A program made the position numbers and the translations under genes. From an uncultured Acidimicrobiia bacterium (GTDB taxonomy: Bacteria > Actinomycetota > Acidimicrobiia > UBA2766), in assembly GCA_964370965.1 (NCBI GenBank), contig CAYJLW010000013.1, positions 5,696-69,695 on the forward strand: 64,000 nt of DNA, read 5' to 3'. The notes under the pieces were generated by a model. The model was not told where the DNA came from and searched no databases. It saw nothing but the letters and a program-made list of their open reading frames with translations. Numbering within the stretch: the stretch's first letter is position 1; each line of letters begins with the position of its first letter. This document shows, in pieces, positions 6,817 through 51,373 of this stretch.

Positions 6817-7014
6817 AACGGTGGATGGGGCGCCTCCCCCCTGGCTGTCATAAGGCTGACGTGAGACACGTGTTGTAGCCCGCTATCTGTCGGGGCGAGA
6901 CCAGGACAGCGTGGAGCCCCATGTCGCCCCTTCGCCACCGCAGGAAACGGGACCCAATCCCCTCGGCCGACAGACGGCCAGCCGCGTCATGTAGAGGGCG
7001 CTCTCGATCGGGCG

Positions 7015-7440
7015 TTACCCCCTGACCACGTCCACGGACACGCAGCGGTCGAAGCGGACGGGCTGCCACTCCATGGGGGCGTACTGGAGGTGGTCGTAGC
7101 CGTCGACGAGGTGGAGCCACTTCACCATCCCGACCTCGACCTCGTTGGGGCCCTTGCCCCCCGGGGATCATGTAGTCCTCGTAGCCGTTGGAGACCGTCA
7201 GGGCGCCCGGACGCCACGTCGGGCTCGTGTGCAGGTTCACCCGAAAGTCGCCCACGTCGTTCCAGACCCCCGCGGTGTCGTCGGCGATGTCGAGAGCGGC
7301 GGCGTCGTCGGGGTGGATGAGCTGCGGACGGTGTCGGGGTGCCCACCGGTCGCTCCGGCCACCCGCTCCGGGCGGCACTCGCTGTCGAGGAGCCGCCGCA
7401 CCCGGGCCAGGAGCGGCTCCACGGTGACCGTCGTGCCGTC
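7015..7440 (-). pseudogene. C-terminal remnant of a molybdopterin bis-MGD oxidoreductase, paralogous to the 3' end of the 27563-30508 gene
   Basis: The minus-strand translation LIHPDDAAALDIADDTAGVWNDVGDFRVNLHTSPTWRPGALTVSNGYEDYMIPGG / KGPNEVEVGMVKWLHLVDGYDHLQYAPMEWQPVRFDRCVSVDVVRG* aligns with VVVHPEDAAREGIADHQPVRVSNEAGSFVVRAKLSPTQRPGGVTVYSGWDGHQFPGW...PSLVKHLGLAAGYGHLRYGPMEWQPVPCDRPVAVDIEAVVEG of the full-length gene. A +1 frameshift at the C6 run 7157-7162 separates the two segments. There is no N-terminal 800 aa, because the region upstream is the crtI-like promoter. Confidence 0.55.
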
Positions 7441-7523
7441 GGCGGGGGCGTCGTCGGTGACACGGGCGTCACCGGTTGTGGCGGGGCCTAATCGCTGGAT
7501 ATATTGGCTATCAATACCCATGA

Positions 7524-9624: not shown

Positions 9625-9676
9625 GCCCGGCTGCCCCCTGCATTGGCAGTTCCCGTGCGAGTGAAAGGTCCTGGGG

Positions 9677-14195: not shown

Positions 14196-14281
14196 GAGCT
14201 CCTCCGTTCGTGTCGTTCGCGGCCGCATCGATGCCGGCCGCTGGATGGACCGAAGACGACCCTGCCGGTGGCGCCCACCGG

Positions 14282-25627: not shown

Positions 25628-25840
25628 GGCGTCCTCCTGGCCAGGCGACCCGAACGGCCCTTCGACGACCTCACCGATCGAGCACCCGGTCTGGGTCGCG
25701 CGCCCTCACCGTCGGCAGACCCGCCCCTCGGTGCGGATCGTCGCTCGCACAGAGCGGCATCCTATCTTCGCCGGTTCCCGCCCGGCCGACACTGCCGAGG
25801 ACCCGTGCCGCCGCCGCCGCCGAAGCCGGGTCCCGCCCGG

Positions 25841-31772: not shown

Positions 31773-32146
31773 ACGGAAGCACCAAGATGCCGGGGCGGAG
31801 GCCCCCCTCCCCGCGACCCCCGCTCGCGCACGGTCGCTGGTCCCGGCCTGGGGCGCCTGTCGCCGACGAGTAGCCTCCGGGGAGTGAGACGCTCGAAGGG
31901 CTTTTGTCTCACCGAGGGGGGCGGTGAACTCGCAGGCGAGAGGTCCGAGATCCGCCCCCCGCCCGCAATGTCCTGCTCAGCGGGGACATGACGCACCCGT
32001 CACAGACCATTGCGCTCATGCTGCAAACTCTTGTATCGTTCGTCAGGAAAGCGAGGATTTCTCCTCGTTACCGCACGTAACTCAGAATCAAGAGACAGCG
32101 CAACGCCAACCGGGCCGTTCCGGCCGACCACCACGGGGGGTTAACC

Positions 32147-33847: not shown

Positions 33848-33851
33848 GACC

Positions 33852-35567
33852 GTGACCCGTCAGACCTACGAAGTGCAGGTTCCTCCCGAAGAGCGCATCC
33901 TCGACGAGTTCCCGGAGCGCTCCGAGTTCGACGTAGTCGTCGTGGGTGGGGGCCCGAACGGCCTCATGACCGCCGCCTACCTCGCCCGTGCCGGACTGCG
34001 CACCGTCGTCGTGGAGCGCCGCCACGAGATCGGCGGCGGCCTCGCCACGGAAGAGGTCCTCTTCCCCGGCTACTACACCAACGTCCACGCCGTCTATCAC
34101 ATGATGACGGACTTCATGCCCCTGTTCCGGGACTTCGACTTCGCCAAGCACGGCCTCACGTTCGTGAAGCCCAACGCCCAGACGGCGGCGGTCTTCCCCG
34201 ACGGCAAGAGCCTGCTCCTCTGCAACCAGCTCGAGGACACCAAGGACTCCATCGCGAAGTTCTCCCGCCAGGACGCCATCAACTTCGGCAAGGTCATGCG
34301 CACCTGGCGCAAGGTCGTCGACGAAGTCGTGGGGCCCGCCACCTACGTGCCGCCCGTGGCCCCGATAGACATGATCGAGGCGTTCGAGCGCACCGAAACC
34401 GGCCGTGAGACGCTGCGCCTCACGGAGATGTCCCCCGTCGAGATCATCGACGAGATCTTCACCGACGACCGCGTGAAGATGACGATGCTGTACGCCGCCT
34501 GCATGTGGGGCCTGGACCCGACCGACACCGGCCTCGGGTTCATGGTGCCCCTGCTCATCGACCGCACGATGAACAAGGCGATCGCCTATGGCGGCTCCCA
34601 CAAGCTCGCCGGAGCCCTCTCCCGCGAGATCCACAAGGCCGGCGGCCTCGTCGTCGACAACGCCGAGGTCACCCGGATCATCGTCGAGGGCGGCGCCGCC
34701 GTCGGCGTGGAGACGTTCGACGGGCGCGAGATCCGGGCGAAGGCCGTGGTCTCCAGCCTCGACCCGCAGACCAACTTCCTCCGCCTCCTCGAGCGCGACC
34801 AGGTGCCCGCCGACCTCGTCACCCGCGCCGAGGGTTGGGAGTGGGACAAGTGGTCCTTCTTCACGGTCTCCCTCGCCATGACCGAGGCGCCCAAGTACGT
34901 CACCGACGACCCCTGGGTGAACAAGGCGTTCATGACGATCCTGGGCTTCGACTCCACCGAGGCTCTCCTGGCGCACTGGGACGGCGTCCTGAACAACCGC
35001 CTCGGCCCCGGTCTCGGCGGTCACGCCACCACCGAGACCCTCTACGACCCCACCCTGTCGCGGGTGCAGAGCGGGTCGCCGCACCCGTGGGCCGAGGAAC
35101 CGCCGGCAGCCAAGGGGCCCCGCCACCACGTGGCGTTCCTGCAGATGCACGCCCCCTACGACCTCGAGGGGGGCTGGAAGCAGCGTCACGACGCCCTCGT
35201 CGAGGAGACCATCGAGACCTGGGGGCGCTACGCCCCGAACGTCAAGGCCGAGAACATCCTCATCCGCTCCGGCGAGTCGCCCCTCGACATCGAGCGGCGC
35301 ATGCCGAACATGGTGCGGGGTTCCATCAAGCACGGCGACTACAACTCGCTGCAGATGGGCGTGTTCCGTCCCGACGACTCCTGCGTGGGCGGCCGCAGCC
35401 CGATCCAGGGCCTCTACCTCTGCGGCGCCTCCAACTACCCGGGCGGCCTCGTCATCGGGGGGTCCGGCTACATCGCCGCCAACACCGTGGCCGAGGACCT
35501 CGGCGTCGAGAAGTGGTGGACCCCGCCCCGGCACGTGGCCCGCTTCGAGGAGACGTACATGTCATGA
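33852..35567 (+). CDS. CrtI/phytoene-desaturase-family FAD-dependent oxidoreductase (paralog B2)
   Basis: FDVVVVGGGPNGL...ERRHEIGGG; C-terminal CGASNYPGGLVIGGSGYIAAN. GTG start 4 nt after the B1 stop. Confidence 0.85.
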   Translation: MTRQTYEVQVPPEERILDEFPERSEFDVVVVGGGPNGLMTAAYLARAGLRTVVVERRHEIGGGLATEEVLFPGYYTNVHAVYHMMTDFMPLFRDFDFAKHGLTFVKPNAQTAAVFPDGKSLLLCNQLEDTKDSIAKFSRQDAINFGKVMRTWRKVVDEVVGPATYVPPVAPIDMIEAFERTETGRETLRLTEMSPVEIIDEIFTDDRVKMTMLYAACMWGLDPTDTGLGFMVPLLIDRTMNKAIAYGGSHKLAGALSREIHKAGGLVVDNAEVTRIIVEGGAAVGVETFDGREIRAKAVVSSLDPQTNFLRLLERDQVPADLVTRAEGWEWDKWSFFTVSLAMTEAPKYVTDDPWVNKAFMTILGFDSTEALLAHWDGVLNNRLGPGLGGHATTETLYDPTLSRVQSGSPHPWAEEPPAAKGPRHHVAFLQMHAPYDLEGGWKQRHDALVEETIETWGRYAPNVKAENILIRSGESPLDIERRMPNMVRGSIKHGDYNSLQMGVFRPDDSCVGGRSPIQGLYLCGASNYPGGLVIGGSGYIAANTVAEDLGVEKWWTPPRHVARFEETYMS

Positions 35568-36076: not shown

Positions 36077-36271
36077 CGGTGTCGGGCCGTCGTCCCGGCC
36101 CCGCCCAGAACCGGCCCCGCTCCCGGGCGGGCCAGGTGAGCGTGGTGGCGGTGAAGTTGTCGGTGCCCGGGGCGAATCCCTGCGTCTGATACCCGTCGGG
36201 ATCCCCCCCAAAACGCCCCGGGCTCCGGCTTCGGGGGGGGAGTTCCGCTCCCCCCCCGGACTCTCACGCCG

Positions 36272-36933
36272 CTACTCGGCGTCCTGGCGTCTCAGACGGA
36301 GGACGCAGCCTGCGCGCCTCGGGTCCCGCACTTCGAGGTCGACGACGGTGACGCCTCCGCCGAGGGCCTCGAGGATGCCCTCGGCCAGGCCGCGGTGGAG
36401 AGCGCAGACAGTCTGCGGGTCCTGTGTGGCGGCGCTGGAGAACGCGCAGCGCTCCAAGACCAGCTCCACCGTGGCGTCCTCACACACCCGGCGACTGGGG
36501 GCGAAACCCTGCCGGGCGATCTCGCGTTCCAGGACGTCCACCGCGTCCCCTGCGGGCCCCCCGGCCCCCGTCGGGCCCGCCGCCCCGGCAGAGCGACCAA
36601 CCCTGCGGGGGTCCTCTCCCGTGCGGATGATCTCGAGCAGCCAGCCGGCGAGGCGTTCGTAGGCGTCCGGCCCGCCCCACTGCGCTGCGAGGTCCGGAAC
36701 AGGCCGGTAGCGCAGGGGAGGCCGGCCCGGCCGGCCGCCGGACTCGGTCTCCTCGACCAGGAGGTCCGCGGCCACGAGACAGGCCAGGTGCTGGCGCACG
36801 GCGTTGTGGTTGAGGCCCACGAGCTCGGTGAGGGCGGCGACCCCGACCGGCTCGGGCGACTCGAGAATGTGACGGTAGATGAGGTGACGCGTGGGATTGC
36901 CGAGCGCCCGGGCCTGCTCCTGCAGCGTGCTCA
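36272..36933 (-). CDS. ArsR-family HTH transcriptional regulator with extended C-terminal domain
   Basis: GTG at 36933. ALGNPTRHLIYRHI...GLNHNAVRQHL is a winged-helix HTH of the ArsR type. An additional C-terminal domain of about 100 aa contains Cys residues. Confidence 0.65.
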
Positions 36934-38160
36934 CGGCGCCTCCCCCGCCGGCACCCCGCGAGCGGGCACCCGCTCCCCCCGGCCGGCCAAGAGAAGGCCG
37001 AGCCGGACTCCCGTGTCTGCCACCCACAGCCCCGTCACGACCCACGCCGCCACGCCGGCGCCCGCGGCCCATGCCACAGCAGCCACGTTCGCCGCCGCGA
37101 GGCCCGGCCAGCTCCGGGTGAGGCGGAATCCGGCCCCCAGCCGCTCGTGGCCCCCGCCCCGCAGCACGGGCCCCAGGTAGGCGAGGGCGCCCGCCAGGAT
37201 CTGGCCGTAGCCCCCGACGAGGAGACATCCCAAGATCCTCGGGTCCGCTACCGGTCGCCCCGCCCCTGCGCGGGCCCCCGCCCACACGACAGCGCCCGCC
37301 CACCACGCCGTCCCGGCGAGGATCTGCACCAAGCGGGGTCCTGCCCAGCGGATCTGCTTCCCGCCCAGGCGGGGGAGGATCCCCGCCGTGGCGACCACGC
37401 CGGCGCCATAGGCGAACAGCCCGGCCGCCGCGAGGCCGCCGTTCCCGGCCAGGGCGCCCCCGGCCGCCAGGGCGCCGCCGGCGGCGAGGGTGCCGAGGAG
37501 AGCGCCCCGGTTCCGGGGAGTGGCCCGGGGACTGGGCTTCACGCGCGCCTCCGTAGCCGTGAAGAACGGCAGCGTGCCCGCCACCACAAGGCCCACGAGG
37601 CCGAGCAGGTTGAGGATGAGGTGGCCGTCACGGACGGCGTCGGTGCCCCGGACCGCCCCTGTCGCCACGAGGATCCCGACCGCGCAACCCGCGACCCCGA
37701 AGAGGACCGCTGTCTCATAGAACAGGGCCGACGGGCGGAAGCGGTCCGCCACGCCGTTCGCCACCGTCCAGCGCACCATTCCCGCCCAGAGGACGAGAGC
37801 GCCGACGACCAGGGCCCCCGAGACACCCGCGAGCGCCGGCAAGCGGAGCTCCCGGGCGAGGAGGAGACCGCCGGCGCCGCCGGCGAGCAGCCAGCGCTGC
37901 GTGGCCGCCAGGGCGCCGGGGGGAGCGGGGCCCGCCGACCAGGTGACCGCAAAGAGGAGGCCGGCACCGGATATCGCCAGCAGGAGCGCCCCCACGCCAA
38001 AGACGTGCACCGGTGCCCAGGGACCGGTGCGATGAGGGACCGCGGCAACGACGGGAGTGGCCGCCACGAAGGCGACGGCGACGAGCAGGGTGGCGCGGGC
38101 CTGACCCTGGGCGCGCACGACGCGACCGGCGTCGGCGCCATCCCGTCGGTCGCCGGCCAC
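36931..38160 (-). CDS. polytopic integral membrane protein, unknown function
   Basis: 409 aa, about 10 hydrophobic segments. Stop overlaps the regulator start. Confidence 0.5.
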   Translation of the reverse strand: MAGDRRDGADAGRVVRAQGQARATLLVAVAFVAATPVVAAVPHRTGPWAPVHVFGVGALLLAISGAGLLFAVTWSAGPAPPGALAATQRWLLAGGAGGLLLARELRLPALAGVSGALVVGALVLWAGMVRWTVANGVADRFRPSALFYETAVLFGVAGCAVGILVATGAVRGTDAVRDGHLILNLLGLVGLVVAGTLPFFTATEARVKPSPRATPRNRGALLGTLAAGGALAAGGALAGNGGLAAAGLFAYGAGVVATAGILPRLGGKQIRWAGPRLVQILAGTAWWAGAVVWAGARAGAGRPVADPRILGCLLVGGYGQILAGALAYLGPVLRGGGHERLGAGFRLTRSWPGLAAANVAAVAWAAGAGVAAWVVTGLWVADTGVRLGLLLAGRGERVPARGVPAGEAP

Positions 38161-38168
38161 AGCCGACC

Positions 38169-38489
38169 CTACCGGCGGAATCCGAGCGTGGCGGCGGCCT
38201 CTTCCTCCATGCGCTCGGGGGTCCAGGGTGGGTCCCAGACGACGTTCATCTCGACGCCCCCGGGCGCGGCGTCACCGAGGGACTGCGTGACCACGGCCTT
38301 GGCCTGCTCGGGCAGGCTGTCGGCGATCGGACACCCCGGCGTGGTCAGGGTCATGTCGATCACGACCTTGTCGTCTTCGGCGCGAATGTCGTAGACGAGA
38401 CCCAGAGCGACGACGTCGAGGCCGAGCTCCGGGTCGTAGACGAGGCGGAGCGCCTCTCGGGCGCGCTCGACGAGGTCGGGCGTGGTGCT
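38169..38489 (-). CDS. DUF59/MIP18-family FeS-assembly protein (SufT-like)
   Basis: LVYDPELGLDVVALGLVYDI...MTLTTPGCPIADSL is the hallmark block. ATG at 38489 behind AGGAGGAACG. Confidence 0.75.
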   Translation of the reverse strand, partial: STTPDLVERAREALRLVYDPELGLDVVALGLVYDIRAEDDKVVIDMTLTTPGCPIADSLPEQAKAVVTQSLGDAAPGGVEMNVVWDPPWTPERMEEEAAATLGFRR

Positions 38490-39871
38490 CATCGTTCCTC
38501 CTGGGCGGTCACGGGTGTCGCAAGGGCGGGTATGTCGAGGACTGTGGCGCTGCGGCCTGCCCGGCGGGGGCCGAATCCCAGGTTGGAGAGGGCGAGGACC
38601 CCTGTGAGCGAGAGCAGGAGGCCGCCCGCCGCAAACGCCCAGGAGGTCGCCGCGGCCGCCCCCGCGAGCAGGAACCCCACTCCGAGCGTCATGGACGCGA
38701 GTGTGAGGCGGGCCACCCGGCCGTCGAAGAGATCGGCGAAGAGGAGGGGCTTTCCGTCGGGACGCATGAGGAAGCCCCTTTCCCGGAGCTTCGTCCAAGA
38801 GATGAACGGGACGATCTTGTGGGCGTGGCCGACGACGGCGAGGCCGAGCCAGCCGAAGAGGCCCAGCACCTCCACGGTGAGGAGGCGCTGGCGGGCGGTG
38901 ACGGTGACGGGGGCGAGGGCGCCCACGACCCCTGCCGCCACGGCGACGAGCAGGGAGAGGGCCGAGGCGAAGATGAAGGCGTGGAGGAGCTCCAGGGGCC
39001 GGCGGCGGTTGCGCACGTACGCCGCGAGGGCGCCGAGATGACATGCCAGACCCGCGGCCACCCCCAGGCCACCGAGGACGCAGAGCCACCGCCACTGCAA
39101 GAGGAGTCCGCCCACCAACAGGGTGACGCCGGTAGCGGCCAGCCAGATCCCCCACCGCGCCGGGCTCCTCTCGACATGGGCGAGAAGGAACATCGGCCAG
39201 AGCTTCTCGGCCACGGCCATGTAGGTGATCCCCAGCCAGCCGAGGAGGCCGAGGTGGGCGTGGGCGAGGATGCGCACCGGGAGCAGGGAGAACCAGCCGG
39301 TGTCGAGGTCGAGGGCGTAGACGACGCCGAAGCCGGCAGTTGTCACGAGGAACGCGAGGGAGAGGCGGATCCCGACGATCGGGGTTCCCTTGCCCCGGCC
39401 CGCCAGAGGTCGCGAGAGGTTCCAGACCATGAGGAGGATCGCCGTCCAGGCCAGCGCCCCGGCCGTGGCCGCCAGCCAGAGGACACCCCACTCCAGCGAG
39501 CCGGCGAGAACCCAGACGGACGGGACGAAGAGCGCCGCCGAGACCCCGGCGACACGGACCGACCGCAGGGGTGCCATGCCGATGACGGGTGAGAACTGGT
39601 GGAGTGCTCCCAGCACGGAGGTCGTGAGGAAGGCGAGCATGCTCAGGTGGAAGACGCCCGCCACCCGCATCGACGTGGGTGCGGTCACGGCCCGGGAGGC
39701 GACCTCGGCGAGGCCGATCCCCCCCACGACGAGGCCCACAGCGCCCGCGGCCAGGAATGTGAGGGGGACGCGGGCGGGGGGGATCGCAGGGGACGCGCCC
39801 GGGCCGGCCGGCACCCCGGGGGGTGAGGGCGTACCGGCCGGCGGGGCGAGGGACGGATCGGGTTCGCTCAT
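38489..39871 (-). CDS. polytopic integral membrane protein, unknown function
   Basis: 460 aa, more than 10 hydrophobic helices. Translationally coupled on both sides. Confidence 0.5.
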   Translation of the reverse strand: MSEPDPSLAPPAGTPSPPGVPAGPGASPAIPPARVPLTFLAAGAVGLVVGGIGLAEVASRAVTAPTSMRVAGVFHLSMLAFLTTSVLGALHQFSPVIGMAPLRSVRVAGVSAALFVPSVWVLAGSLEWGVLWLAATAGALAWTAILLMVWNLSRPLAGRGKGTPIVGIRLSLAFLVTTAGFGVVYALDLDTGWFSLLPVRILAHAHLGLLGWLGITYMAVAEKLWPMFLLAHVERSPARWGIWLAATGVTLLVGGLLLQWRWLCVLGGLGVAAGLACHLGALAAYVRNRRRPLELLHAFIFASALSLLVAVAAGVVGALAPVTVTARQRLLTVEVLGLFGWLGLAVVGHAHKIVPFISWTKLRERGFLMRPDGKPLLFADLFDGRVARLTLASMTLGVGFLLAGAAAATSWAFAAGGLLLSLTGVLALSNLGFGPRRAGRSATVLDIPALATPVTAQEER

Positions 39872-40224
39872 CCGGGGGTCAGGGCCAGGAAGCGCCGCGT
39901 GCGGCGGGCGTCTTGCAGGCCTCGGGTCACCTCCTCCAGGGTGCGGCCCAGAGGCACGTGCTCGAGCAGCCTGCCGAGGGCCTCGTCGTCGACTTCGTCA
40001 GAGGCTACTTCTCGTGCGGCGGCCTGGAATCGGGCGGCGAAGCCGTGGCCGCCGATCTCCCCGATGGTGACCTCGACGCGCTCGCCGTCGGCCACGCCGG
40101 CGAGGCGTTCGTCACCGAGGCAGATGAGGCGGTCACCCTGGGCGGCGTAGCGGGCACTGGCACTGTGGCCGTTGACCCGCAGCGACACGGTGTAGCGGCC
40201 CTTCACTTCACTCGGCAACGCCAT
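39868..40224 (-). CDS. hypothetical protein (first gene of a three-gene operon)
   Basis: 118 aa. Its stop overlaps the downstream membrane-protein start. A perfect palindrome lies 20-45 bp upstream. Confidence 0.45.
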   Translation of the reverse strand: MALPSEVKGRYTVSLRVNGHSASARYAAQGDRLICLGDERLAGVADGERVEVTIGEIGGHGFAARFQAAAREVASDEVDDEALGRLLEHVPLGRTLEEVTRGLQDARRTRRFLALTPG

Positions 40225-40348: not shown

Positions 40349-41542
40349 TCACCCGAGCGGCCGGGGCTGACCGAGGTGCACGCAGCGGACGCCGCCCACC
40401 TCCATCTCGGCCACACAGAGGTTGCAGGGAACGCAACGGGACGCCGTCGCCCCGCCCGTCTCCATGCGGGACACGAGGTCGGGTTCGGCGATGAGCGCCC
40501 GACCCATGGCGACGAACTCGAAACCGTCCTCCATCGCCTGCGTAACGCCGGCGAGGCTCTTGACGCCTCCCAGAAGGACCACGGGGACCTCCACGGCATC
40601 CTTGACCTGCCGGGCGCCCTGCAGGAAGAAGAGCTCCGTGAAAGGGATCTCCTTCACGACGAATCGCCCGAAGAGGCCGAGGCCGACGCGGGCGAGGGGC
40701 TTGGTCTCGTGCGCGACCATCTCTTTGACCGGCACGTTGCCCCGGAGCATGTAGAACGGCGTCCGGCTCGTGAAACCGCCGCTGGGGACTATGGCGTGCA
40801 CCCCGGCACCCTCGAGGGCCCGGGCCACGGCGACGGACTCCTCCAGGGTGAGGCCGCCCCGGAAGCCGTCGGTGAGGTTGAGCTTGGCCAGGACCGCTGC
40901 CCGCTCTCCCACCTCCTCGACCACACGTCGGACGGTGCCCACGGGCATCCGCATCCGGTTCTCCAGGCTCCCGCCCCAGCGGTCCCGGCGCCTGTTCGTG
41001 TACGGGCTCAGGAACTGGCTGAGGAGGTAGCCGTGGCCCACGTGGACCTCGACGGCGTCGAAGCCCGCTTCCACGGCGAGATGCGCCGCCCGGCCGTAGT
41101 CGTCCACGAGCGCATCGATCTCGGCCTCGCCGAGGGGGCGCGAGAAGCTCATGCCGTAGGCGTTGAAGACCCGCGACGGAGCCACCGGCGTCGCCCCGAT
41201 CGTCTTGCGGTCGGCGAAGTACCCGGCGTGGCCGAGTTGCAGGGCGGCCGCCGCCCCCTCGGCGTGCACGGCGTCGGTGACCTCGCGGAGGTGCGCAACG
41301 AGCTCAGGGCGCATGTGCATCTGATCGGCGAACGTGAGACCGAGGGGCGACACCGAGCAGTAGGCGACCGTGGTCATCCCGGCTCCCCCCGCCGCTATCG
41401 CCCGGTGGTGCGCGACGAGGGCTGCGCCAGGCACGCCACCGGGCGACATCCCCTCGAAGGTGGCCGCCTTCACGAAGCGGTTGCGCAACTGCACAGGACC
41501 GATCCGCCCCGGAGTGAAGGCCTTGTGTACCGCCGTCGCCAT
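40349..41542 (-). CDS. Old-Yellow-Enzyme-family NADH:flavin oxidoreductase (2,4-dienoyl-CoA-reductase-like N-terminal module)
   Basis: TIM-barrel OYE blocks (HGAHGYLLSQFLSP-like HVGHGYLLSQFLSPYTNRR) and a C-terminal CVPCNLC...C cysteine cluster. ATG at 41542. Confidence 0.8.
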   Translation of the reverse strand: MATAVHKAFTPGRIGPVQLRNRFVKAATFEGMSPGGVPGAALVAHHRAIAAGGAGMTTVAYCSVSPLGLTFADQMHMRPELVAHLREVTDAVHAEGAAAALQLGHAGYFADRKTIGATPVAPSRVFNAYGMSFSRPLGEAEIDALVDDYGRAAHLAVEAGFDAVEVHVGHGYLLSQFLSPYTNRRRDRWGGSLENRMRMPVGTVRRVVEEVGERAAVLAKLNLTDGFRGGLTLEESVAVARALEGAGVHAIVPSGGFTSRTPFYMLRGNVPVKEMVAHETKPLARVGLGLFGRFVVKEIPFTELFFLQGARQVKDAVEVPVVLLGGVKSLAGVTQAMEDGFEFVAMGRALIAEPDLVSRMETGGATASRCVPCNLCVAEMEVGGVRCVHLGQPRPLG

Positions 41543-41631: not shown

Positions 41632-42711
41632 ATGCGCACCGGCCACGCGGACCTCCCCCTCCATGGGGGACGTGCACCCCGCTGGCTGTTCGAACGCATG
41701 ACGGCGCTCGCCCGTGAGATGTCCCTCGTGATCGTGGCCGACCAGGGGCCCGCCGGCCTCCTGCGACGGATCTCGGACCCGGTGTGGTTCCAGGCCTTCG
41801 GCTGTGTCCTGGGCTTCGACTGGCACTCCAGCGGCGTCACCACCACCGTCTGCGGAGCCCTCAAGGAGGCCCTGACCGGCCTCACCGCGGACACCGGCGT
41901 CGTCGTGGCCGGCGGGAAGGGGAGGGCCTCGCGCCGCACCCCGGCGGAGATCCAGGCCGCCTGCGAGGCCTCCGGAAGAGACCCGAACCCCCTCGTGCGC
42001 GCCAGCCGCCTCTCGGCCAAGGTCGACTCCGCTGCCGTACAGGACGGCTTCCAGCTCTACCACCACACGTTCCTGTTCACCACCGACGGCAACTGGGCCG
42101 TCGTGCAGCAGGGCATGCAGGACTCCTCCGGGATGGCCCGCCGCTACCACTGGCTCACGCAGGCCCGCTTCGACTCGGACCCCCACGCCGCCGTCGCCGG
42201 GGTCCGCTGCGGCGACATCCTGAACCTCGTGGCCGCCGAGGCCGGAGGCAACCGGGACACGTCGGCGGCCTTGTCCCGCGAGGGTCCGCGTGTGGTCCTG
42301 CGCGAGATCGGCCGCATGCGCGAGCTCTCCCTTCCCCGCCGCCACGCCGTCCGCCTCGGCGACGTCCACCCCGACCGCCTGGAACGGGTTCTCCTCGCCG
42401 CCTACGCAGCCCAGCCCGCCGACTTCACCGGCCTCCTCGCCACCCCCGGCGTAGGCGCCGCCGGCCTCCGGGCCCTCGCCCTCGTCGCCGAGCTCACCTA
42501 CGGCGAACCCACGTCGGTACGGGACCCGGTCTCGTTCTCCTTCGCCCACGGCGGCAAGGACGCCACCCCGTTCCCCGTCGACCGCACCACCTATGACGCC
42601 ACCATCGAGTCCCTCCGGAGCACGATGCGGGAGACGAGGACCGGCCGCACGGACAAGGCCGACGCCCTCAGACGCCTCGCCCGCCTGCAGGCAGGGGCAC
42701 CCTCCGGGTAG
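41632..42711 (+). CDS. DUF763-family protein
   Basis: N-terminal MRTGHADLPLHGGRAPRWLFERM resembles the conserved DUF763 start. 359 aa. Called by pattern memory. Confidence 0.5.
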   Translation: MRTGHADLPLHGGRAPRWLFERMTALAREMSLVIVADQGPAGLLRRISDPVWFQAFGCVLGFDWHSSGVTTTVCGALKEALTGLTADTGVVVAGGKGRASRRTPAEIQAACEASGRDPNPLVRASRLSAKVDSAAVQDGFQLYHHTFLFTTDGNWAVVQQGMQDSSGMARRYHWLTQARFDSDPHAAVAGVRCGDILNLVAAEAGGNRDTSAALSREGPRVVLREIGRMRELSLPRRHAVRLGDVHPDRLERVLLAAYAAQPADFTGLLATPGVGAAGLRALALVAELTYGEPTSVRDPVSFSFAHGGKDATPFPVDRTTYDATIESLRSTMRETRTGRTDKADALRRLARLQAGAPSG

Positions 42712-42776
42712 GTGTCGCCCGGGCGGCCCGGGCAGGTTACGCTCGAAGAACCGCCGAGCACCGCGAGGGAAGACCG

Positions 42777-44180
42777 ATGGCCGAAGTCGTCGACGTCCAC
42801 ATGCGCCAGAGCGACGCCTTCGCCTGGTACATGGAGGACGACCCGCTGTTGCGCTCCACGATCGTCGCCGTGGCGACGCTCGACCGGGCCCCCGACAGGG
42901 ACAGGTTCATGGAGGCGATGGAACGGGCGAGCCGCATGATCCCCGCCTTCCGCCAGAAGGTCGTGACCCCTCCGATGCGCCTCGCCACTCCCCGCTGGAC
43001 CTACGACCCCGACTTCGACCTCTCCTGGCACGTCCGGCGGGTCGAGGCCCCCGCCCCCAAGACGTTCGACACCGTCCTCCAGTTCGCCCGCAACACCGGC
43101 ATGACCGGCTTCGACCGCGCGCGGCCCCTGTGGGAATTCACCGTCGTCGAGGGCCTCGAGGACGCCCGGGCGGCGATCGTGATGAAGGTCCACCACTCCC
43201 TCACCGACGGCATCGGCGGCATGCAGCTCGCCATGCAGATCATCGACTTCGACCGCCAGGGCACCGATCGCGGGCCCCTGCCCGACGCCCCCGAAGGGGA
43301 GGACGTGGGCGCCGTCGACCTCATCCGCGACGCGATCGCCTACGACTGGGGCAGGGTGTACGAGGCCGCCCGTCACAGCGCCGGCGCCGCCCTTCCCACC
43401 GCGGTGGCGGCCGCCCGTCACCCGTTCCAGACAGCGTCGGAGGTCCTGCGCACGGTGCGCTCGGTGGCCCGCTTCGCCAGGCCCGTGAGCGAGACCCTCT
43501 CCCCCGTGATGACCGAGCGCCGCCTCGCCTGGCACTACGAGGTCCTGGACATCCCCTTCGACCGCCTCAAGGCGGCGGCCCGCGCCGGCGACTGCACGCT
43601 CAACGACGCCTTCATGGCCGGGGTACTGGGGGGGATGCGCCGCTACCACGAGCACCACGGCGCCCCCGCCGACGAGCTCCGCGTGACGATGCCGATCAGC
43701 CTTCGCAAGGCGGACGACCCCGCCGGGGGCAACCGCATCACGCTGGTCCGCTTCCAGGTTCCCGTCACCCTCACCGACCCCATCGCCCGCATGCAGGCGA
43801 TCGACTCCATCACGAAAGCCTGGCGCAACGAGCCCGCGATCCCCCTCTCCAACATCGTGGCCGGGGCGCTCAACCTTCTGCCCACGGGCTACACGGGCGG
43901 GATGCTCAAGCACGTGGACTTCCTCGCCAGCAACGTCCCCGGGGTGCCCATCCCCGTGTTCGTCGCCGGCGCGCAACTGGAGCGCTACTACGCTTTCGGC
44001 CCCACCATCGGGGCGTCCGTGAACATCACGCTCATCTCCTACTGCGGCGTCTGCTGCATCGGCGTGAACACGGACACGGGCGCCGTGGCCGACCACGAGG
44101 TCTTCCTGGACTGCCTCCGCGAGGGCTTCGAGGAGGTCACGTCCCTGGCCGATGACGTCCCCGCCGCCGGGCGCACGTGA
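42777..44180 (+). CDS. wax ester synthase / diacylglycerol acyltransferase (WS/DGAT)
   Basis: Catalytic HHSLTDGIGG (HHxxxDG) motif. About 467 aa, typical family size. Confidence 0.8.
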   Translation: MAEVVDVHMRQSDAFAWYMEDDPLLRSTIVAVATLDRAPDRDRFMEAMERASRMIPAFRQKVVTPPMRLATPRWTYDPDFDLSWHVRRVEAPAPKTFDTVLQFARNTGMTGFDRARPLWEFTVVEGLEDARAAIVMKVHHSLTDGIGGMQLAMQIIDFDRQGTDRGPLPDAPEGEDVGAVDLIRDAIAYDWGRVYEAARHSAGAALPTAVAAARHPFQTASEVLRTVRSVARFARPVSETLSPVMTERRLAWHYEVLDIPFDRLKAAARAGDCTLNDAFMAGVLGGMRRYHEHHGAPADELRVTMPISLRKADDPAGGNRITLVRFQVPVTLTDPIARMQAIDSITKAWRNEPAIPLSNIVAGALNLLPTGYTGGMLKHVDFLASNVPGVPIPVFVAGAQLERYYAFGPTIGASVNITLISYCGVCCIGVNTDTGAVADHEVFLDCLREGFEEVTSLADDVPAAGRT

Positions 44181-46506
44181 CAGCCCAACCGGTCGCCCGG
44201 CCGTGACCGAACCGCTTCGGCGGCGCTTCGTCGTGCGGGGCGTCGTACAGGGCGTCGGCTTCCGGCCCTTCGTGCACCGCCTCGCCGAGGATCTCGGCCT
44301 CTGCGGTTTCGTGGGCAACGACACCACGAGCGTCTTCGTGGAGGTCGAGGGCCTCGGGGGAGCCCTGGTGGACTTCGCCTCCAGACTCCGCTCGGAGGCC
44401 CCCGCCCTCGCCCGCATCGAGGACGTGAGGGCGGAGGACGTGCCCGCGCTGGGCGAGCCGGGCTTCGCGATCGTGCCCAGCCGCCACGAGCCCGGGACCG
44501 TCACACTCGTCCCCCCGGACGTGGCCACGTGCCCGGACTGCCTGGCGGAGCTTCGCGACCCGGCGGACCGCCGCTACCGGTACCCGTTCGTGAACTGCAC
44601 GAGATGCGGGCCCCGCTTCACGATCATCCGGGCCCTGCCCTACGACCGCTCCCGGACGACCATGGCGGCCTTCGCGCTCTGCCCCGACTGCGCCACGGAG
44701 TACGGGGACCCCAGGGACCGCCGCCACCACGCCGAGCCCGTCGCCTGCCCCGCCTGCGGACCCCGCCTCGAATTCCTCCCGGGGGCGGGGACGCCCGGTC
44801 ACCGCTCCGCTCGCGGAGCTCCGGCGCTGGAGGCCGCCCGCGACGTCCTCGCCGCCGGGGGGGTCCTGGCTGTGAAGGGTCTCGGCGGCTACCACCTGGC
44901 GTGCGACGCCGCCGACCCGGCGGCCGTGGCCCGTCTCCGGGAACGCAAGCGCCGGGAGGCCAAGCCCCTCGCCGTGATGGTCCGGGACCTCGCCGCCGCC
45001 CGGGCCCTCGCCGGCGTGGACGCCGCCGCCGCCGCCGTCCTCACGAGCCCGGCGCACCCCGTCGTCCTCCTCCGCAAACGGCACCGTCACGGCCCCGCCG
45101 AGCTCGCCGCTCCCGGCAACCCCGACGTCGGGATCATGCTCCCGTACACGCCCCTCCACCACCTCCTCCTGGAACCGGTCGCCGGTGCGCCCGCCGTCCT
45201 CGTCATGACGTCCGGGAACCTCTCGGACGAGCCCATCGCGTACGACGACACCGACGCCCGGAAGCGGCTCGCCCCCCTCGCCGACGCCTGGCTCGTCCAC
45301 GACCGGCCGATCCACGTGCCCTGCGACGACTCCGTGGTTCGGGTCCTCGACGGCGAGGTGTCTCCGATCCGACGCTCCCGGGGCTATGCCCCCTACCCCG
45401 TGGGCCTCCCGTTCGACGCCCCACCCACCCTCGCCGTGGGTGGGGAGGTCAAGAACACGTTCTGCCTCGCGGCGGGGAGGCACGCCTGGATGAGCCAGCA
45501 CATCGGGGACATGGCGGACCTCGAGACCCTCCACGCCTTCGAGCACTCCGTCGCCCGGCTCACGGACCTGTTCCGCGTGACGCCCGGGCGCGTGGCCGGG
45601 GACAGGCATCCCGGCTACCTGTCCGCCCGCTGGGCGCGGGAACGGGCGGCAGCCTCAGGGGTCCCTCTCGTCACCGTCCAGCACCACCACGCCCATCTCG
45701 CCGCCCTCCTCGCCGAGCACGGCCGGCCCCCCGGGGAACCCGCCATCGGGATCGTCTTCGACGGCGCCGGATACGGTGACGACGCCACGGTCTGGGGGGG
45801 CGAGGTCCTCGTGGGCGACTACGCGGGGTTCCGCCGTTTCGCCCACCTCGCGCCCGTCCCCCTGCCCGGCGGGGACGCCGCCGTGCGCCTCCCCCGCCGC
45901 ATGGCCCTCTCCCACCTCTGGGCGGCCGGAGTGCCGTGGGACGCCGACCTCCCCCCGTTCGCCGCGGCGGGCGCCGCGGAAAGCCGCGTGCTCGCCCGCC
46001 AACTCGAGACCGGATTCGCCACCACGCCCACGTCGAGCATGGGTCGCCTCTTCGACGCCGTCGCCTCCCTGGCCGGCCTCCGCCACGAGACCACGTTCGA
46101 GGCCCAGGCAGCCGTCGACCTCGAAGCCGCCGCGGCCGGTCGGGTCGAGGACGGCTACCGCTTCTACGTCCCCGCCGGAGGTGGGCCGGTGACGCCGACC
46201 CCGGTGGTGCGGGCCGTCGCCGGCGACGTCCGTGCCGGGACGGACCCTTCACTGGTCGCCGCGAGGTTCCACGGGGCCGTCGCCGACCTGGTCCTCCAGG
46301 CGGCGCGGCGCGCCCGGGACGCCACAGGCGTCCACGCAGTCGGCCTCACGGGCGGCGTGTTCCAGAACGGCCTCCTCGCCCGCAGCGCGGCCGCACTCCT
46401 CGCCGGCGACGGTTTCAAGGTCCTGGTCCACAAGGAGGTCCCCCCCAACGACGGGGGCATCGCCCTCGGCCAGGCGGCGGTGGCGGCGTTCACGCCCCTG
46501 GTGTGA
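44152..46506 (+). CDS. hypF: [NiFe]-hydrogenase maturation carbamoyltransferase HypF
   Basis: Acylphosphatase domain VRGVVQGVGFRPFV. Two Zn-finger pairs (CPDC...CTRCGPR, CPDC...CPACGPR). YrdC block AVKGLGGYHLACDA. Kae1-like C-terminal GGVFQN. Start is ATG at 44152, overlapping the WS/DGAT end, or GTG at 44213. Confidence 0.85.
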   Translation: MTSPPPGARDSPTGRPAVTEPLRRRFVVRGVVQGVGFRPFVHRLAEDLGLCGFVGNDTTSVFVEVEGLGGALVDFASRLRSEAPALARIEDVRAEDVPALGEPGFAIVPSRHEPGTVTLVPPDVATCPDCLAELRDPADRRYRYPFVNCTRCGPRFTIIRALPYDRSRTTMAAFALCPDCATEYGDPRDRRHHAEPVACPACGPRLEFLPGAGTPGHRSARGAPALEAARDVLAAGGVLAVKGLGGYHLACDAADPAAVARLRERKRREAKPLAVMVRDLAAARALAGVDAAAAAVLTSPAHPVVLLRKRHRHGPAELAAPGNPDVGIMLPYTPLHHLLLEPVAGAPAVLVMTSGNLSDEPIAYDDTDARKRLAPLADAWLVHDRPIHVPCDDSVVRVLDGEVSPIRRSRGYAPYPVGLPFDAPPTLAVGGEVKNTFCLAAGRHAWMSQHIGDMADLETLHAFEHSVARLTDLFRVTPGRVAGDRHPGYLSARWARERAAASGVPLVTVQHHHAHLAALLAEHGRPPGEPAIGIVFDGAGYGDDATVWGGEVLVGDYAGFRRFAHLAPVPLPGGDAAVRLPRRMALSHLWAAGVPWDADLPPFAAAGAAESRVLARQLETGFATTPTSSMGRLFDAVASLAGLRHETTFEAQAAVDLEAAAAGRVEDGYRFYVPAGGGPVTPTPVVRAVAGDVRAGTDPSLVAARFHGAVADLVLQAARRARDATGVHAVGLTGGVFQNGLLARSAAALLAGDGFKVLVHKEVPPNDGGIALGQAAVAAFTPLV

Positions 46507-46543
46507 AAGGATTCCCCGTGTCGCCGTCCAGCCCGAGCCTGCC

Positions 46544-47650
46544 GTGACCCCCGACACCGTACGGGCGATGGTGCTGGAGGCCCCCCGGCGCCTCGTCGCG
46601 CGGGACTTCCCGGTGCCCTCCCTCGGTGACGACGACGGCCTCCTGCGGGTCGAGGCGTGTGGCCTCTGCGGCACGGACCATGAGCAGTACACGGGGGCCC
46701 TCGCCGTCGGGTTCGCGTTCGTGCCCGGCCACGAGACGGTGGGAGTCCTGGTCGCGGCCGGCCCCGCGGCAGCACGGCGATGGGGCGTCGAGGTCGGAGA
46801 CCGGGTCGCCGTGGAGGTGTTCCAGTCCTGCCGTGCGTGCGAGCGGTGCCAGATCGGCGAGTACAACCGCTGCCCGGCGCACGGCCTCGCCGACATGTAC
46901 GGATTCGTCGACGCCGCTCGGGCGCCGGGCCTCTGGGGCGGCTACGCGCAGTACCAGTACCTCGCCCCGGACACGATGCTGCACAGGGTGCCCGACGGCC
47001 TCGACCCGGCCCTCGCCACGCTCTTCAACCCGTTGGGGGCCGGGATCCGTTGGGGTGTCACGCTGCCCGCCACGAGGCCCGGCGACGTCGTCGCCGTGCT
47101 CGGCCCGGGCGTTCGCGGCCTCTCTGTCGTGGCCGCCGTGCGAGAGGCCGGAGCCGGCTTCGTCGTCGTAACCGGCAGTGGCGAGCCTGACCGGCCCCGC
47201 CTCGGGCAGGCCGGCGCTTTCGGCGCCGACCTCACCCTCGACGTGGCGACGACCGACCCCGTCCGGGCCCTGAAGGACGCCTCTGGCGGCCTCGCCGACG
47301 TGGTGGTCGACGTGACCGCCAACGCGCCCGATGCCTTCGCCCAGGGCGTCGCTCTCACGCGCCCGGGCGGCACGTTCGTCGTCGCCGGCACCCGTGGGGC
47401 CCGCGGCGCTCCGGGCTTTCAGCCGGACACGGTGGTCCGCAGGGAGATCCGCATCCTGGGAGCGCTCGGCGTCGACGCCCCGGCGTACAGGGACGCTCTC
47501 GGAGTACTCGCCGGCGGCAGGTACCCCTTCGCCCAGTTGCCGCGGACAGTCGTTGGTCTCGACGGCGTCGCCGGGCTCCTGCGCGACATGGCCGGCGAGG
47601 GCAGCGGCGCCCCGCCGCTGCACGGGGTCGTGGCACCCCAACCGCCGTGA
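46544..47650 (+). CDS. zinc-dependent alcohol dehydrogenase (MDR family)
   Basis: CGLCGTDHE and GHETVG catalytic-zinc blocks, CRACERC structural-zinc block, GPGVRG Rossmann motif. Start is GTG at 46544 or ATG at 46568. Confidence 0.8.
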   Translation: MTPDTVRAMVLEAPRRLVARDFPVPSLGDDDGLLRVEACGLCGTDHEQYTGALAVGFAFVPGHETVGVLVAAGPAAARRWGVEVGDRVAVEVFQSCRACERCQIGEYNRCPAHGLADMYGFVDAARAPGLWGGYAQYQYLAPDTMLHRVPDGLDPALATLFNPLGAGIRWGVTLPATRPGDVVAVLGPGVRGLSVVAAVREAGAGFVVVTGSGEPDRPRLGQAGAFGADLTLDVATTDPVRALKDASGGLADVVVDVTANAPDAFAQGVALTRPGGTFVVAGTRGARGAPGFQPDTVVRREIRILGALGVDAPAYRDALGVLAGGRYPFAQLPRTVVGLDGVAGLLRDMAGEGSGAPPLHGVVAPQPP

Positions 47651-47662
47651 GTTGCCCGTGGT

Positions 47663-48331
47663 TCAGCCGATCGCCGGGCTCGCGCCGGTGGTGCCGGTGA
47701 GGCCCGCCGGGCAGGCCACGCCGGTACCGCCGGCCCCGCAGTGGCCCGCGGGGTTCTTCGCCAGGTACTGCTGGTGTGAGGCCTCCGCGTAGAAGAACGG
47801 GGGTGCCGCACGGATCTCGGTGGTGATCTCCCCGAATCCCGCGGCCGCGAGCACTCCCTGGTAGGCCTCCCGCGACGCCTCCGCTTCGAGGAGTTGGCCC
47901 TGGGACGTGCAGTACACGGCGCTGCGGTACTGCGTGCCGACGTCGTTTCCCTGGCGCATCCCCTGCGTGGGGTCGTGGGCCTCCCAGAAGAGGCGGAGCA
48001 GGTCTCCGTAGCCGGTGGCCGCCGGGTCGTACACGACGAGGACGACCTCCGCGTGGCCGCTGAGGCCGGTGCAGACCTCGTCGTAGTCCGGGTTCAGCGT
48101 GTACCCGCCGGCGTAGCCCACGGCCGTCGTGTAGACCCCCGGCGCCTCCCAGAAGAGACGCTCGGCGCCCCAGAAGCACCCCATCCCGAACACGGCGACC
48201 TCGGTGCCTTCCGGGAACGGGGGAAGCATCGGGTGGCCGTTCACATGGTGCTCGGGGGGCACCGGCATCGGCGCGGCCCGCCCCGGGGGGGCTTCGCTAA
48301 CCGATGGCATCCTCGTGTAGCGCCTGTTCAC
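47663..48331 (-). CDS. msrA: peptide methionine sulfoxide reductase MsrA
   Basis: GCFWG active-site motif. GTG at 48331 behind GGGAGGG. Confidence 0.85.
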
Positions 48332-48606: not shown

Positions 48607-48913
48607 GTGGCTGAGCGGTTCGAACTCGAGGCGTTGGACGACGACGACCCGTTCGAGATCGATCGACAGTACGACACACCTGTTCAAGCATGCGGGCCTC
48701 GGCATTGACGACGTCTACGACGTGTGGCAATCCGACCCTCTCTTCTACCCGGCAAAGCCGCCGGCGCACTGGCTCATGGTGAGCGACGTCGCGGGCGACA
48801 TTCTCGTCGTGCCACTCGCCCCGTCCGATACCGCCCACCCAGCCAAGTGCCGTCCAATCGGGTGCTATGTCGCATCGGCGCACCTCGCCGCCCTCTACCG
48901 GAAGGACCAATGA
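48607..48913 (+). pseudogene. BrnT-like (DUF497) toxin, frameshifted
   Basis: Frame 1 from GTG at 48607 gives VAERFELEALDDDDPFEIDRQYDTPVQACGPRH*, an FEWD-like N-terminus. Frame 2 continues HLFKHAGLGIDDVYDVWQSDPLFYP...ILVVPL...CRPIGCYVASAHLAALY, which parallels BrnT N..KHGVSFEEA..VF.DP ... IRIISAR.A. Stop forms an ATGA overlap with the antitoxin start. Confidence 0.45.
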
Positions 48914-49143
48914 AGGATCACATGTCTCGCGAAGAGGAATACGAGTTCTACGCCCGGCCGGAGAACCAAGAGCCCCAGGGGCCCGCCCGCCGCCGGAAGC
49001 CGAAGCTGACCGAGATGGTGCCGGTGCGCTTCCCAACAGACACCCTCGAAGAAGTCCGACGGCGAGCCGGCGACGACGACCGGTCGGTCTCGAGCTGGAT
49101 CCGGCGTGCCGTCGAGGAAGCGCTGCACCGCCAAGCAGGGTGA
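48910..49143 (+). CDS. BrnA-like RHH/CopG-family antitoxin
   Basis: MKDHMSREEEYEFYARPENQEP...LTEMVPVRFPTDTLEEVRRRAGDDDRSVSSWIRRAVEEAL has a C-terminal RHH signature. Confidence 0.55.
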   Translation: MKDHMSREEEYEFYARPENQEPQGPARRRKPKLTEMVPVRFPTDTLEEVRRRAGDDDRSVSSWIRRAVEEALHRQAG

Positions 49144-49342: not shown

Positions 49343-49750
49343 TTGATCGGCTTGCCCGAGGTCAACGTCCGAGGGGTGCACGACGAGCCCGGCGGGCCGC
49401 TGCGGGTCCATGTTGAGTCCCGGCTCGATCAGGGCTGGTGCCGCGAGTGCGGGGCCCGCGCTGCGATCAAGGACCGGTCGGCGGTCGAGTTCGTAGACTT
49501 GCCGCGCTTCGGGCGGCCGACCCGGCTGGTGTGGCACAAGCAGCGGTGGCGCTGCCGCGAACCGGCGTGTCCGGCGGGGTCCTGGACGATCCTCGACGAG
49601 CGGATCGCCGGGGCGCGGGCCGCGTTGACGAACCGGGCCGGGCGGTGGGCGACGGTCCAAGTCGGCCGGTTGGGCCGCTCGGTGAACGAGGTCGCCGGCG
49701 AGCTGAGCTGTGACTGGCACACCGTGAACGACGCGGTGATCGCCTCATCA
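49343..49750 (+). mobile_element. ISL3-family transposase N-terminal fragment (IS remnant)
   Basis: zf-ISL3 region CRECGARAAIKDRSAVEFVDLPRFGRPTRLVWHKQRWRCREPACP followed by an HTH block (GRSVNEVAGELSCDWHTVNDAV). Sense breaks after about 135 aa, with no DDE domain. An 11-bp-stem inverted repeat lies at 49252-49291 upstream. Confidence 0.6.
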
Positions 49751-51373
49751 GGCGTCTTCCCAGCGCATCCGCTCGGCCGCCTCCACGGCGGCGAGCACGC
49801 CGCGGGCCTTGTTGCGGGTCTCCTTGTACTCGAGCTCCGGCACCGAGTCCGCCACCACACCGCCGGCGGCCTGGACGTGTGCGACGCCGTCCTTGATGAC
49901 AGCCGTCCGCAACGTGATCGCGAGGTCCATGCTCCCGGAGAAGTCCACGTAGCCCATCACGCCGGCATACGGGCCCCGCTGCGTGGGTTCGAGCTCGTCG
50001 ATGATCTCCATGGCGCGCACCTTGGGGGCGCCCGTCACCGTGCCGGCGGGGAACGTCGCGCGGAACACGTCCACGGGCCTGACGCCGGGGCGGGTCCGGC
50101 AGTCGACGGACGACACGATGTGCATCACGTGGCTGTAGCGCTCGACCACCATGAGCTCCCCGACATGCACGGTGCCGAAGGCCCCGACGCGCCCGAGGTC
50201 GTTGCGGGCGAGGTCGACGAGCATGACGTGCTCGGCCCGCTCCTTCGGGTCCCCGAGGAGCTCGCCTGCCAGGGCGGCGTCCTCCTCGTCCGTGCGCCCC
50301 CGCCGTCGCGTACCGGCCAGGGGCCGCGCGTGGACACGGCCGTCCGAGAAGCGCACGAGCTCCTCGGGCGACGCCGACACGATCGTGACCTCAGGGTGGC
50401 GGATGAAGCTCATGTACGGCGACGGGCTCACAAGGCGCAGCGCCCGGTGCACGGCGAAGGGATCGACGGTGAGCGGGCGACTGAAGCGCTGGCTCACCTG
50501 CACCTGGAAGACGTCCCCCGCCAGGATGTACTCCTTGGCCGCCTCCACCGCCGCGCAGAAGTCCGACTTCGTGCGGTTCGACCGGGCGTCGGGCACTTCC
50601 GCAGGGAAGTGCGGCGCCACGGGCGGGTAGACGGCGGGCACCCGCAGCTCCGCCCGGAGACGCTCGAGCTCGTCGAGGCCGTCGTTGTAGCGGCGCCTGA
50701 GCTCGCCCACGTCCCCCCGGCCGTCGAGGTCGTCGAGGTAGACGTTGCGGATGAGGACGAGGCGCTGGCGGAAGTGGTCGAAAGCCACCACCGTGCCCGT
50801 GGCCGCCAGGAGCACGTCGGGCACCCCGAGGTGGTCCGGGTTCGAGACCGGCACACGGGGCTCGATGAAACGCACGGTCTCGTATCCCCAGTAGCCCACG
50901 AGACCCGAATGCAGCGGCGGGAGACCGTCGAGACGGGGCGCACGGTAGCGCTCCAGGAGGGATTCGATCATCACCAGCGGGTCGCCGCCGACGGTTCCCG
51001 CGGGCGCCTCGCCCTCCCAAGTCACCGTGTCCCCTTTGGACTTCATGACGAGGTGCGGGTCTCGCCCGAGGAACGAGAACCGGCCCCAGCGCTCGCCCCG
51101 GATCACGGACTCCAGGAGGAAGCTCCGCTCGTCGCCGAGCTTCAGGAAGGCGGAGACGGGCGTCTCCACGTCGGCGAGCACCTCGCACCACACGGGCACG
51201 ACCGTGTAGTCCGCGGCCAGGCTGGCGAACGTGCCGAAATCCGGCAGGACGACGGTTCCGGCGGGGTCCTCGGCCTCGGGACCGGGGCCCACGCCCGTGA
51301 GCTCGCTCACGGCACGGCCGGAGCGGGGCTGGGCGACTGCCCCGTGCCGCTGCCGAAGCGCCGGTAGAAGCAC
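49748..51373 (-). CDS. trpE: anthranilate synthase component I
   Basis: Chorismate-binding C-terminal blocks ([32 protein letters not shown]). Start is ATG at 51373 or GTG at 51320; both overlap the hisI end. Confidence 0.75.

Follow-up and report, generated by a model that had tools for sequence, protein, structure and literature searches.

The hypF gene in the window (the whole 64,000-nt stretch of DNA analysed here) is very probably the regular hypF of its organism, lying apart from hyp and hydrogenase genes located elsewhere in the genome and set among unrelated housekeeping genes (Table 1). The original prediction had offered two alternatives, dispersed hyp genes or a HypF that carbamoylates a non-hydrogenase target. 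The first is favoured because HypF is canonical and constrained, because stand-alone hypF genes make up 13% of the loci compared, and because the neighbours are not conserved partners, while the second has adjacency as its sole support. We infer that hypCDE and the hydrogenase genes are encoded elsewhere in the genome. From established knowledge of HypF and from HypF structures (3VTH, 3TSP), the enzyme is predicted to convert carbamoyl phosphate and ATP into a carbamoyl-adenylate and would then carbamoylate the C-terminal cysteine of HypE, which would constitute the first step in making the cyanide ligands found in the active sites of [NiFe]-hydrogenases. The adjacent DUF763, wax ester synthase/diacylglycerol acyltransferase (WS/DGAT), alcohol dehydrogenase (ADH) and MsrA genes would be unrelated housekeeping genes brought together in this lineage, probably in a variable region beside the trp/his block that includes an IS remnant.

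Table 1. Genes at the hypF locus, with positions in the window.
Feature	Position	Strand	Evidence
Old-yellow-enzyme family NADH:flavin oxidoreductase	40349..41542	-	Oxidored_FMN, 180.9 bits; gene call in the ENA contig (L001)
DUF763 family protein, 359 aa	41632..42711	+	PF05559, 413.9 bits
Wax ester synthase/diacylglycerol acyltransferase, 467 aa	42777..44180	+	WS_DGAT_cat + WS_DGAT_C (PF03007 + PF06974)
hypF, carbamoyltransferase HypF, 767 aa from GTG 44203	44203..46506	+	Five HypF Pfam domains
MDR-family Zn-dependent dehydrogenase, 368 aa	46544..47650	+	ADH_N + ADH_zinc_N
msrA, peptide methionine-S-sulfoxide reductase	47663..48268	-	PMSR domain; TIGR00401, 198.9 bits (cutoff 108)
ISL3-family transposase, N-terminal fragment	49343..49750	+	Zn_ribbon_ISL3, 31.9 bits (cutoff 25.5)
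trpE	49748..51310	-	Chorismate_bind + Anth_synt_I_N; gene call

The predicted gene order of DUF763, WS/DGAT, HypF and MDR ADH was borne out, all four genes being verified by Pfam and located on the + strand. Successive genes are 65, 22-52 and 37 nt apart, the middle pair overlapping instead if the most upstream hypF start is used, and the run is ended by msrA, which is convergent with the ADH gene. On the other side, the oxidoreductase gene is divergent from DUF763, with an 89-nt intergenic region between them. A promoter/terminator scan, little informative at 72% GC, detected no terminators between the four genes, and their co-transcription is possible. Scans with Rfam and for tRNAs gave no matches. 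An ENA contig 99.97% identical to the window (L001) encodes an identical HypF, and the hypF ORF is intact and the same across assemblies. This stretch recurs in the ENA assemblies ERZ13692941 (NODE_164, 102,968 bp), ERZ13693047, ERZ13692939 and ERZ13692950 as well as in one NCBI assembly.

Judged from its sequence, the window HypF is canonical and fully constrained in all tests applied. The full architecture anticipated for it is present in Pfam, with acylphosphatase (PF00708), two zf-HYPF (PF07503), Sua5/YrdC (PF01300), HypF_C (PF17788) and HypF_C_2 (PF22521) domains in that order and all above cutoff, the last two forming the bipartite Kae1-like domain. The protein scores 757.3 bits against the HypF equivalog model TIGR00143 (cutoff 466.1) in a match that spans positions 3-740 of the 741-position model, and aligns over its full length with the solved HypF structure 3VTH (E = 5e-178). 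The five-domain architecture is the same as that of the HypF structures from Caldanaerobacter subterraneus (3VTH/3VTI), Thermococcus (4G9I) and E. coli (3TSP), and the Zn-finger, YrdC-domain and Kae1-like-domain motifs of known HypF (TIGR00143) are all shared (two CxxC-x18-CxxC motifs, GGYHL, HHHAH, SSMGRLFD, GGVFQN and NDGG). In an alignment with 63 relatives, which themselves have a median of 2 mismatches, HypF carries the consensus residue in all 169 columns that are at least 95% conserved. Its distance to HypFs of Chloroflexi and Planctomycetes is 0.489, compared with 0.49-0.55 for HypFs encoded in hyp clusters, a comparison that gives no sign of rate acceleration.

The O-carbamoyltransferases TobZ, NodU and CmcH of antibiotic and Nod-factor pathways use the same carbamoyl-adenylate chemistry as HypF and likewise contain YrdC-like and Kae1-like domains. 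They differ in having Carbam_trans_N/C domains and a Kae1-then-YrdC order, and in lacking the acylphosphatase and Zn-finger domains. By contrast, the window HypF has the HypF domain order and the HypF-specific domains, and Pfam gave no match to Carbam_trans_N (PF02543) or Carbam_trans_C (PF16861) at E <= 0.001. The comparison with TobZ/NodU-type enzymes that had been proposed is thus moot.

The reported lack of hydrogenase genes nearby was confirmed by tblastn of the 64-kb window with HypA/B/C/D(E), NiFe large subunit, NifU and DUF5947 queries from at least 80 related loci, which returned zero matches. The additional flanks (~6 kb past the 5' end and ~10 kb past the 3' end) also contained no hyp or hydrogenase genes, so that hypA-E and hydrogenase genes are absent across ~80 kb of contiguous sequence. 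A Ni_hydr_CYTB match at 23822-25705 was rejected as a hydrogenase cytochrome b, as its score does not reach the cutoff and it is part of a fusion with a molybdopterin (MsrP-like) domain. The absence of these genes from ~80 kb would agree with retention of HypF after loss of the hydrogenase, either as a recent, undegraded relic or as a gene with another, secondary role. This is nevertheless unlikely, because relaxed constraint would be anticipated in a relic, whereas the highly conserved positions are all intact, the rate is not accelerated, and the same uninterrupted ORF recurs in each assembly. Furthermore, [NiFe]-hydrogenases are present in nearly every Acidimicrobiia genome (PMC11697166), which likewise speaks against hydrogenase loss.

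Dispersal of the hyp genes, the preferred reading, has ample precedent. In E. coli, hypF is part of a hydN-hypF operon separate from hypABCDE. Among the matches listed, 7 of the 53 relatives with full 10-kb flanks (13%, ~1/8) have a hypF without any hyp or hydrogenase gene nearby. These seven loci (L028, L042, L043, L045, L056, L065 and L080) are from actinomycete genomes and resemble the window in that hypF lies >10 kb from other maturation genes, with unrelated flanking genes. Their contexts differ and are mutually unrelated, including LutABC/rhamnose genes, NmrA, TetR and AHSA1. A group-4 hydrogenase upstream of hypF in L028 and L042 was considered and rejected, the genes being identified by Pfam as rhamnose and lactate utilisation genes. 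Since roughly one related genome in eight has this arrangement, a solitary hypF is ordinary, and finding hypF by itself within a 64-kb view is for the same reason no evidence of a new function. Hyp genes are also scattered in cyanobacteria (PMC5186783) and in methanogens (PMC3087415). The window thus adds one further case of a hydrogenase-maturation gene apart from its partners, in a poorly sampled Acidimicrobiia-like lineage. Very unlikely is an organism lacking both [NiFe]-hydrogenase and HypE, in which a fully constrained HypF shares a transcript with WS/DGAT and the MDR dehydrogenase and carbamoylates or cyanates another acceptor; a complete genome without HypE and any [NiFe]-hydrogenase would, if found, be a lead to a non-hydrogenase role of HypF.

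The description of the neighbourhood as lipid-flavoured holds for WS/DGAT, but not for DUF763, which has no known function, nor for the ADH, which has no specific NCBIfam match. WS/DGAT contains the HHSLTDG active-site motif at residue 139, in agreement with HHxxxDG, and passes TIGR02946 marginally (311.4 bits, cutoff 309.95). The ADH falls far below the cutoffs of all specific NCBIfam models (top match HpnZ_proposed, 117 bits versus 328), and its top PDB match is the putative Zn dehydrogenase 4EJ6 (1e-29). DUF763 has neither an NCBIfam match nor a PDB relative, and no account of its function was found in the literature.

Conserved gene neighbourhoods offer no sign of a pathway built on these genes. 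Among the 80 HypF loci in the matches listed, none has DUF763, WS/DGAT or a window-type ADH beside hypF, and these neighbours thus distinguish the window lineage from the other stand-alone hypF loci. The DUF763 relatives (L082-L084; 72-73% identity) have different neighbours and lack the rest of the block, and the DUF763-WS/DGAT-HypF-ADH block is absent from the trpE loci of relatives (L091, L092), arguing against co-inheritance. Because the neighbours are not conserved at the hypF, DUF763 or trpE loci of relatives, the four genes, as judged by gene context, do not form a functional module. It has to be weighed against this that they lie on one strand with short gaps, with no terminator detected by the scan and with a possible overlap between WS/DGAT and hypF, as could be expected if HypF acted with WS/DGAT, ADH and DUF763 in a novel pathway whose target for carbamoylation or cyanation was either a non-hydrogenase protein or a small molecule related to lipids. 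Such a pathway is nonetheless extremely unlikely given the distribution of these genes, since in addition the conserved HypF positions are unchanged, with no sign of a new substrate, the Carbam_trans domains of TobZ/NodU-type enzymes are missing, and the overlap is uncertain.

The nearest HypF relatives among the matches listed are from Acidimicrobiales, with 60% identity, and TrpE has 61-64% identity to its Acidimicrobiia relatives; the Acidimicrobiia-like placement is based on these best matches of only 60-64%. The divergence of HypF is similar to that of TrpE, a pattern that vertical descent at an ordinary rate should give, and would fit vertical inheritance of hypF in a deep Acidimicrobiia-like lineage. 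The window hypF is atypical in its position away from hypCDE and hydrogenase genes and in its ~60% identity to the nearest listed sequence, the latter attributable to poor sampling of the host lineage. The trpE gene opens the conserved core block trpE-hisI-hisF-hisA-hisH-hisB-hisC-hisD, marking the locus as core chromosome. The ISL3 fragment abuts the 3' end of trpE, between msrA and trpE, and with a weak HTH_Tnp_ISL3 match and no DDE domain it has the appearance of a mobile-element scar. An Arc/RHH gene is also located between msrA and trpE. Recent horizontal acquisition of the block, or of hypF alone, via a mobile element could draw on these two genes and on the absence of the block from the trpE locus of relatives, but is most improbable: the GC content (0.75) and GC3 (0.91) of hypF agree with those of the surrounding core genes, the best matches of HypF and TrpE fall in one class with equal divergence, and no donor of higher identity appears among the matches listed in the databases searched.

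The claim that hypF begins within the WS/DGAT gene hinges on the choice of start codon and is uncertain. Three alternative starts are available, namely ATG 44152 (784 aa), GTG 44203 (767 aa) and the gene-caller GTG 44233 (757 aa), of which the first would overlap WS/DGAT by 29 nt, while the other two leave gaps of 22 and 52 nt, respectively. The gene-caller start cuts ~3 residues off the acylphosphatase domain. The database entry for the window HypF is this 757-aa version, and exact look-up of the proteins from ATG 44152 or GTG 44203 returned no entry. The MDR alcohol dehydrogenase said to follow HypF was recovered as a Zn-ADH. Its ORF as listed from 46232 would overlap HypF by ~275 nt, while the gene call of the ENA contig starts at 46544, after a 37-nt gap from the end of HypF.

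The gene on which this analysis centres is very probably the regular hypF of the organism, placed among unrelated genes by what would be a lineage-specific rearrangement; its product would serve HypE and [NiFe]-hydrogenases whose genes lie elsewhere in the genome. Because the window has a GC content of ~72%, real genes were picked by third-position GC and then checked with Pfam. The predicted run of DUF763, wax ester synthase/diacylglycerol acyltransferase (WS/DGAT), HypF and MDR zinc dehydrogenase (ADH) proved correct, since the gene calls of an ENA metagenome contig carrying the same DNA (99.97% identical) match those made here, with the ADH start corrected from 46232 to 46544. The predicted overlap of HypF with WS/DGAT exists only if HypF starts at ATG 44152; GTG 44203 leaves a 22-nt gap, and the gene-caller start at 44233 lies 52 nt after WS/DGAT but clips the acylphosphatase domain.

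Features of the HypF locus and of the rest of the window
Feature	Position	Strand	Remarks
Lower-GC island	4000-8000		0.62-0.65 vs ~0.72; DNA cytosine methylase gene, small ORFs; possibly acquired DNA
FAD/NAD(P)-binding oxidoreductase	7524-9155	+	small ORF without family follows
FAD/NAD(P)-binding oxidoreductase	9665-11272	+	small ORF without family follows
Cytochrome b561-like/Oxidored_molyb fusion	23822-25705	-	MsrQ-MsrP-like
FAD/NAD(P)-binding oxidoreductase	32081-33847	+	
FAD/NAD(P)-binding oxidoreductase	33816-35567	+	
Five-gene run	about 36150-40224	-	HTH_20 regulator; 409-aa protein; SUF-type FeS_assembly_P protein (107 aa); 460-aa protein (weak COX1-like match only); 118-aa protein
Old-yellow-enzyme gene	40349-41542	-	divergent from DUF763
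DUF763	41632-42711	+	third-position GC and Pfam
WS/DGAT	42777-44180	+	third-position GC and Pfam
HypF	ends 46506	+	Pfam: acylphosphatase, two HypF zinc fingers, YrdC-like, bipartite Kae1-like domains
ADH	46544-47650	+	third-position GC and Pfam
MsrA	47663-48268	-	convergent with ADH
Arc/ribbon-helix-helix-like ORF	48910-49143	+	77 aa; possibly antitoxin or regulator, with no assignable partner
ISL3-family transposase N-terminal fragment	49343-49750	+	Zn ribbon above Pfam cutoff, weak HTH; abuts trpE 3' end

Judged by its sequence, the protein is a textbook HypF that keeps the full hydrogenase-type domain set, as originally predicted. It matches the whole TIGR00143 equivalog model (757 bits vs a cutoff of 466), aligns over its whole length with the Caldanaerobacter HypF structure 3VTH (E = 5e-178), and contains both CxxC-x18-CxxC fingers and the motifs GGYHL, HHHAH, SSMGRLFD, GGVFQN and NDGG. 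Aligned with 63 relatives, it keeps the consensus at all 169 columns conserved at ≥95%, at which those relatives show a median of 2 mismatches, and its mean distance to Chloroflexi/Planctomycetes HypFs (0.489) is no larger than that of HypFs inside hyp clusters (0.49 to 0.55). Carbam_trans domains of the TobZ/NodU type, the O-carbamoyltransferases proposed for comparison, had no Pfam match in it. Motifs, conserved columns and distances thus give no sign of decay, which makes a relic in a hydrogenase-free genome improbable, or of a new substrate, which leaves a new pathway with WS/DGAT and ADH very improbable.

The predicted absence of hydrogenase genes around HypF holds. HypA, HypB, HypC, HypD/E, NiFe large subunit, NifU and DUF5947 queries from related loci had no tblastn match within the window, and no hyp or hydrogenase genes occur in ~6 kb beyond its 5' end or ~10 kb beyond its 3' end, as read from contigs sharing window proteins. 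The b561-like fusion was rejected as a hydrogenase gene: its membrane domain reaches 26.6 bits with Pfam Ni_hydr_CYTB, for which the cutoff is 30.1, and is joined in a single ORF to a molybdopterin Oxidored_molyb domain. The remaining window genes code for pentose-phosphate enzymes, a molybdopterin oxidoreductase, paralogous FAD oxidoreductases, an ABC transporter and a trpE-hisI-hisF-hisA-hisH-hisB-hisC-hisD block. Three independent assemblies have contigs (L085-L087) that all stop at an identical point ~6 kb before the window begins, just past qNOR, HlyIII and CtaA genes, which suggests a repeat there (e.g. rRNA operon or IS).

The neighbourhood itself does not appear to be a module. Among the 80 related HypF loci in the matches listed, with up to 10 kb each side, none has DUF763 or WS/DGAT homologues, and the ADH has a single match, a weak one (L046, 33% identity, several kb from HypF). 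DUF763 relatives (72-73% identity) adjoin an amidohydrolase, or a CMAS methyltransferase and PEP carboxylase, and the two closest TrpE relatives have hisI-trpE followed by GCV_T and other genes, with the DUF763-to-ADH block absent. The 1.4-kb msrA-trpE interval holds the ISL3 fragment, which lacks a DDE domain and looks like an IS scar, and the Arc/RHH gene, a sign of past rearrangement; Rfam found nothing in this gene-poor gap (48.3-49.7 kb).

The organism itself is present in ~23 assemblies, and the nearest other HypFs among the matches listed, mostly from Acidimicrobiales and other Actinomycetota, are 57-62% identical. The closest relatives of the window TrpE, all Acidimicrobiia MAGs, are at 61-64%; the divergence of HypF therefore equals that of a housekeeping gene, which fits vertical descent in a deep Acidimicrobiia-like lineage that is poorly sampled, and recent horizontal arrival is most unlikely. 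A comparative study (PMC11697166) reports [NiFe]-hydrogenases, mainly of groups 3b and 4b, in almost all Acidimicrobiia genomes and describes them as ancestral to the class. From the canonical HypF we infer a hydrogenase elsewhere in this genome.

HypF in the 80 relatives listed is usually accompanied by HypC, HypD/E, HypA, HypB and the large subunit. In seven of the 53 with full 10-kb flanks (13%), however, hyp and hydrogenase genes are missing from the surroundings of hypF; these are Qaidamihabitans, Prauserella, three Planotetraspora species, Amycolatopsis taiwanensis and Actinomadura meridiana. Their hypF neighbours (rhamnose and LutABC genes, NmrA, TetR, AHSA1) differ between loci and are unrelated to hydrogen metabolism. 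Cyanobacteria (PMC5186783) and methanogens (PMC3087415) are further documented cases of scattered hyp genes. A SIS_2-domain protein of ~210 aa, encoded beside HypF in 20 of the 80 listed loci (L031, L032, L072, L081 and 16 others), is a recurrent, unnamed companion of actinobacterial hyp clusters.

The four oxidoreductase paralogues (~530-590 aa, amine-oxidase/DAO-like), near which lies a CofD gene, combine a first-position GC that is unusually low (0.63) with a very high GC3 (0.95). For three of the five proteins of the minus-strand run, neither Pfam nor NCBIfam gives a family. In one strain (L090, ERZ13692950), hisD is uncalled and a 421-aa opposite-strand ORF takes its place (14209-15474), probably through a frameshift or gene-calling artefact.
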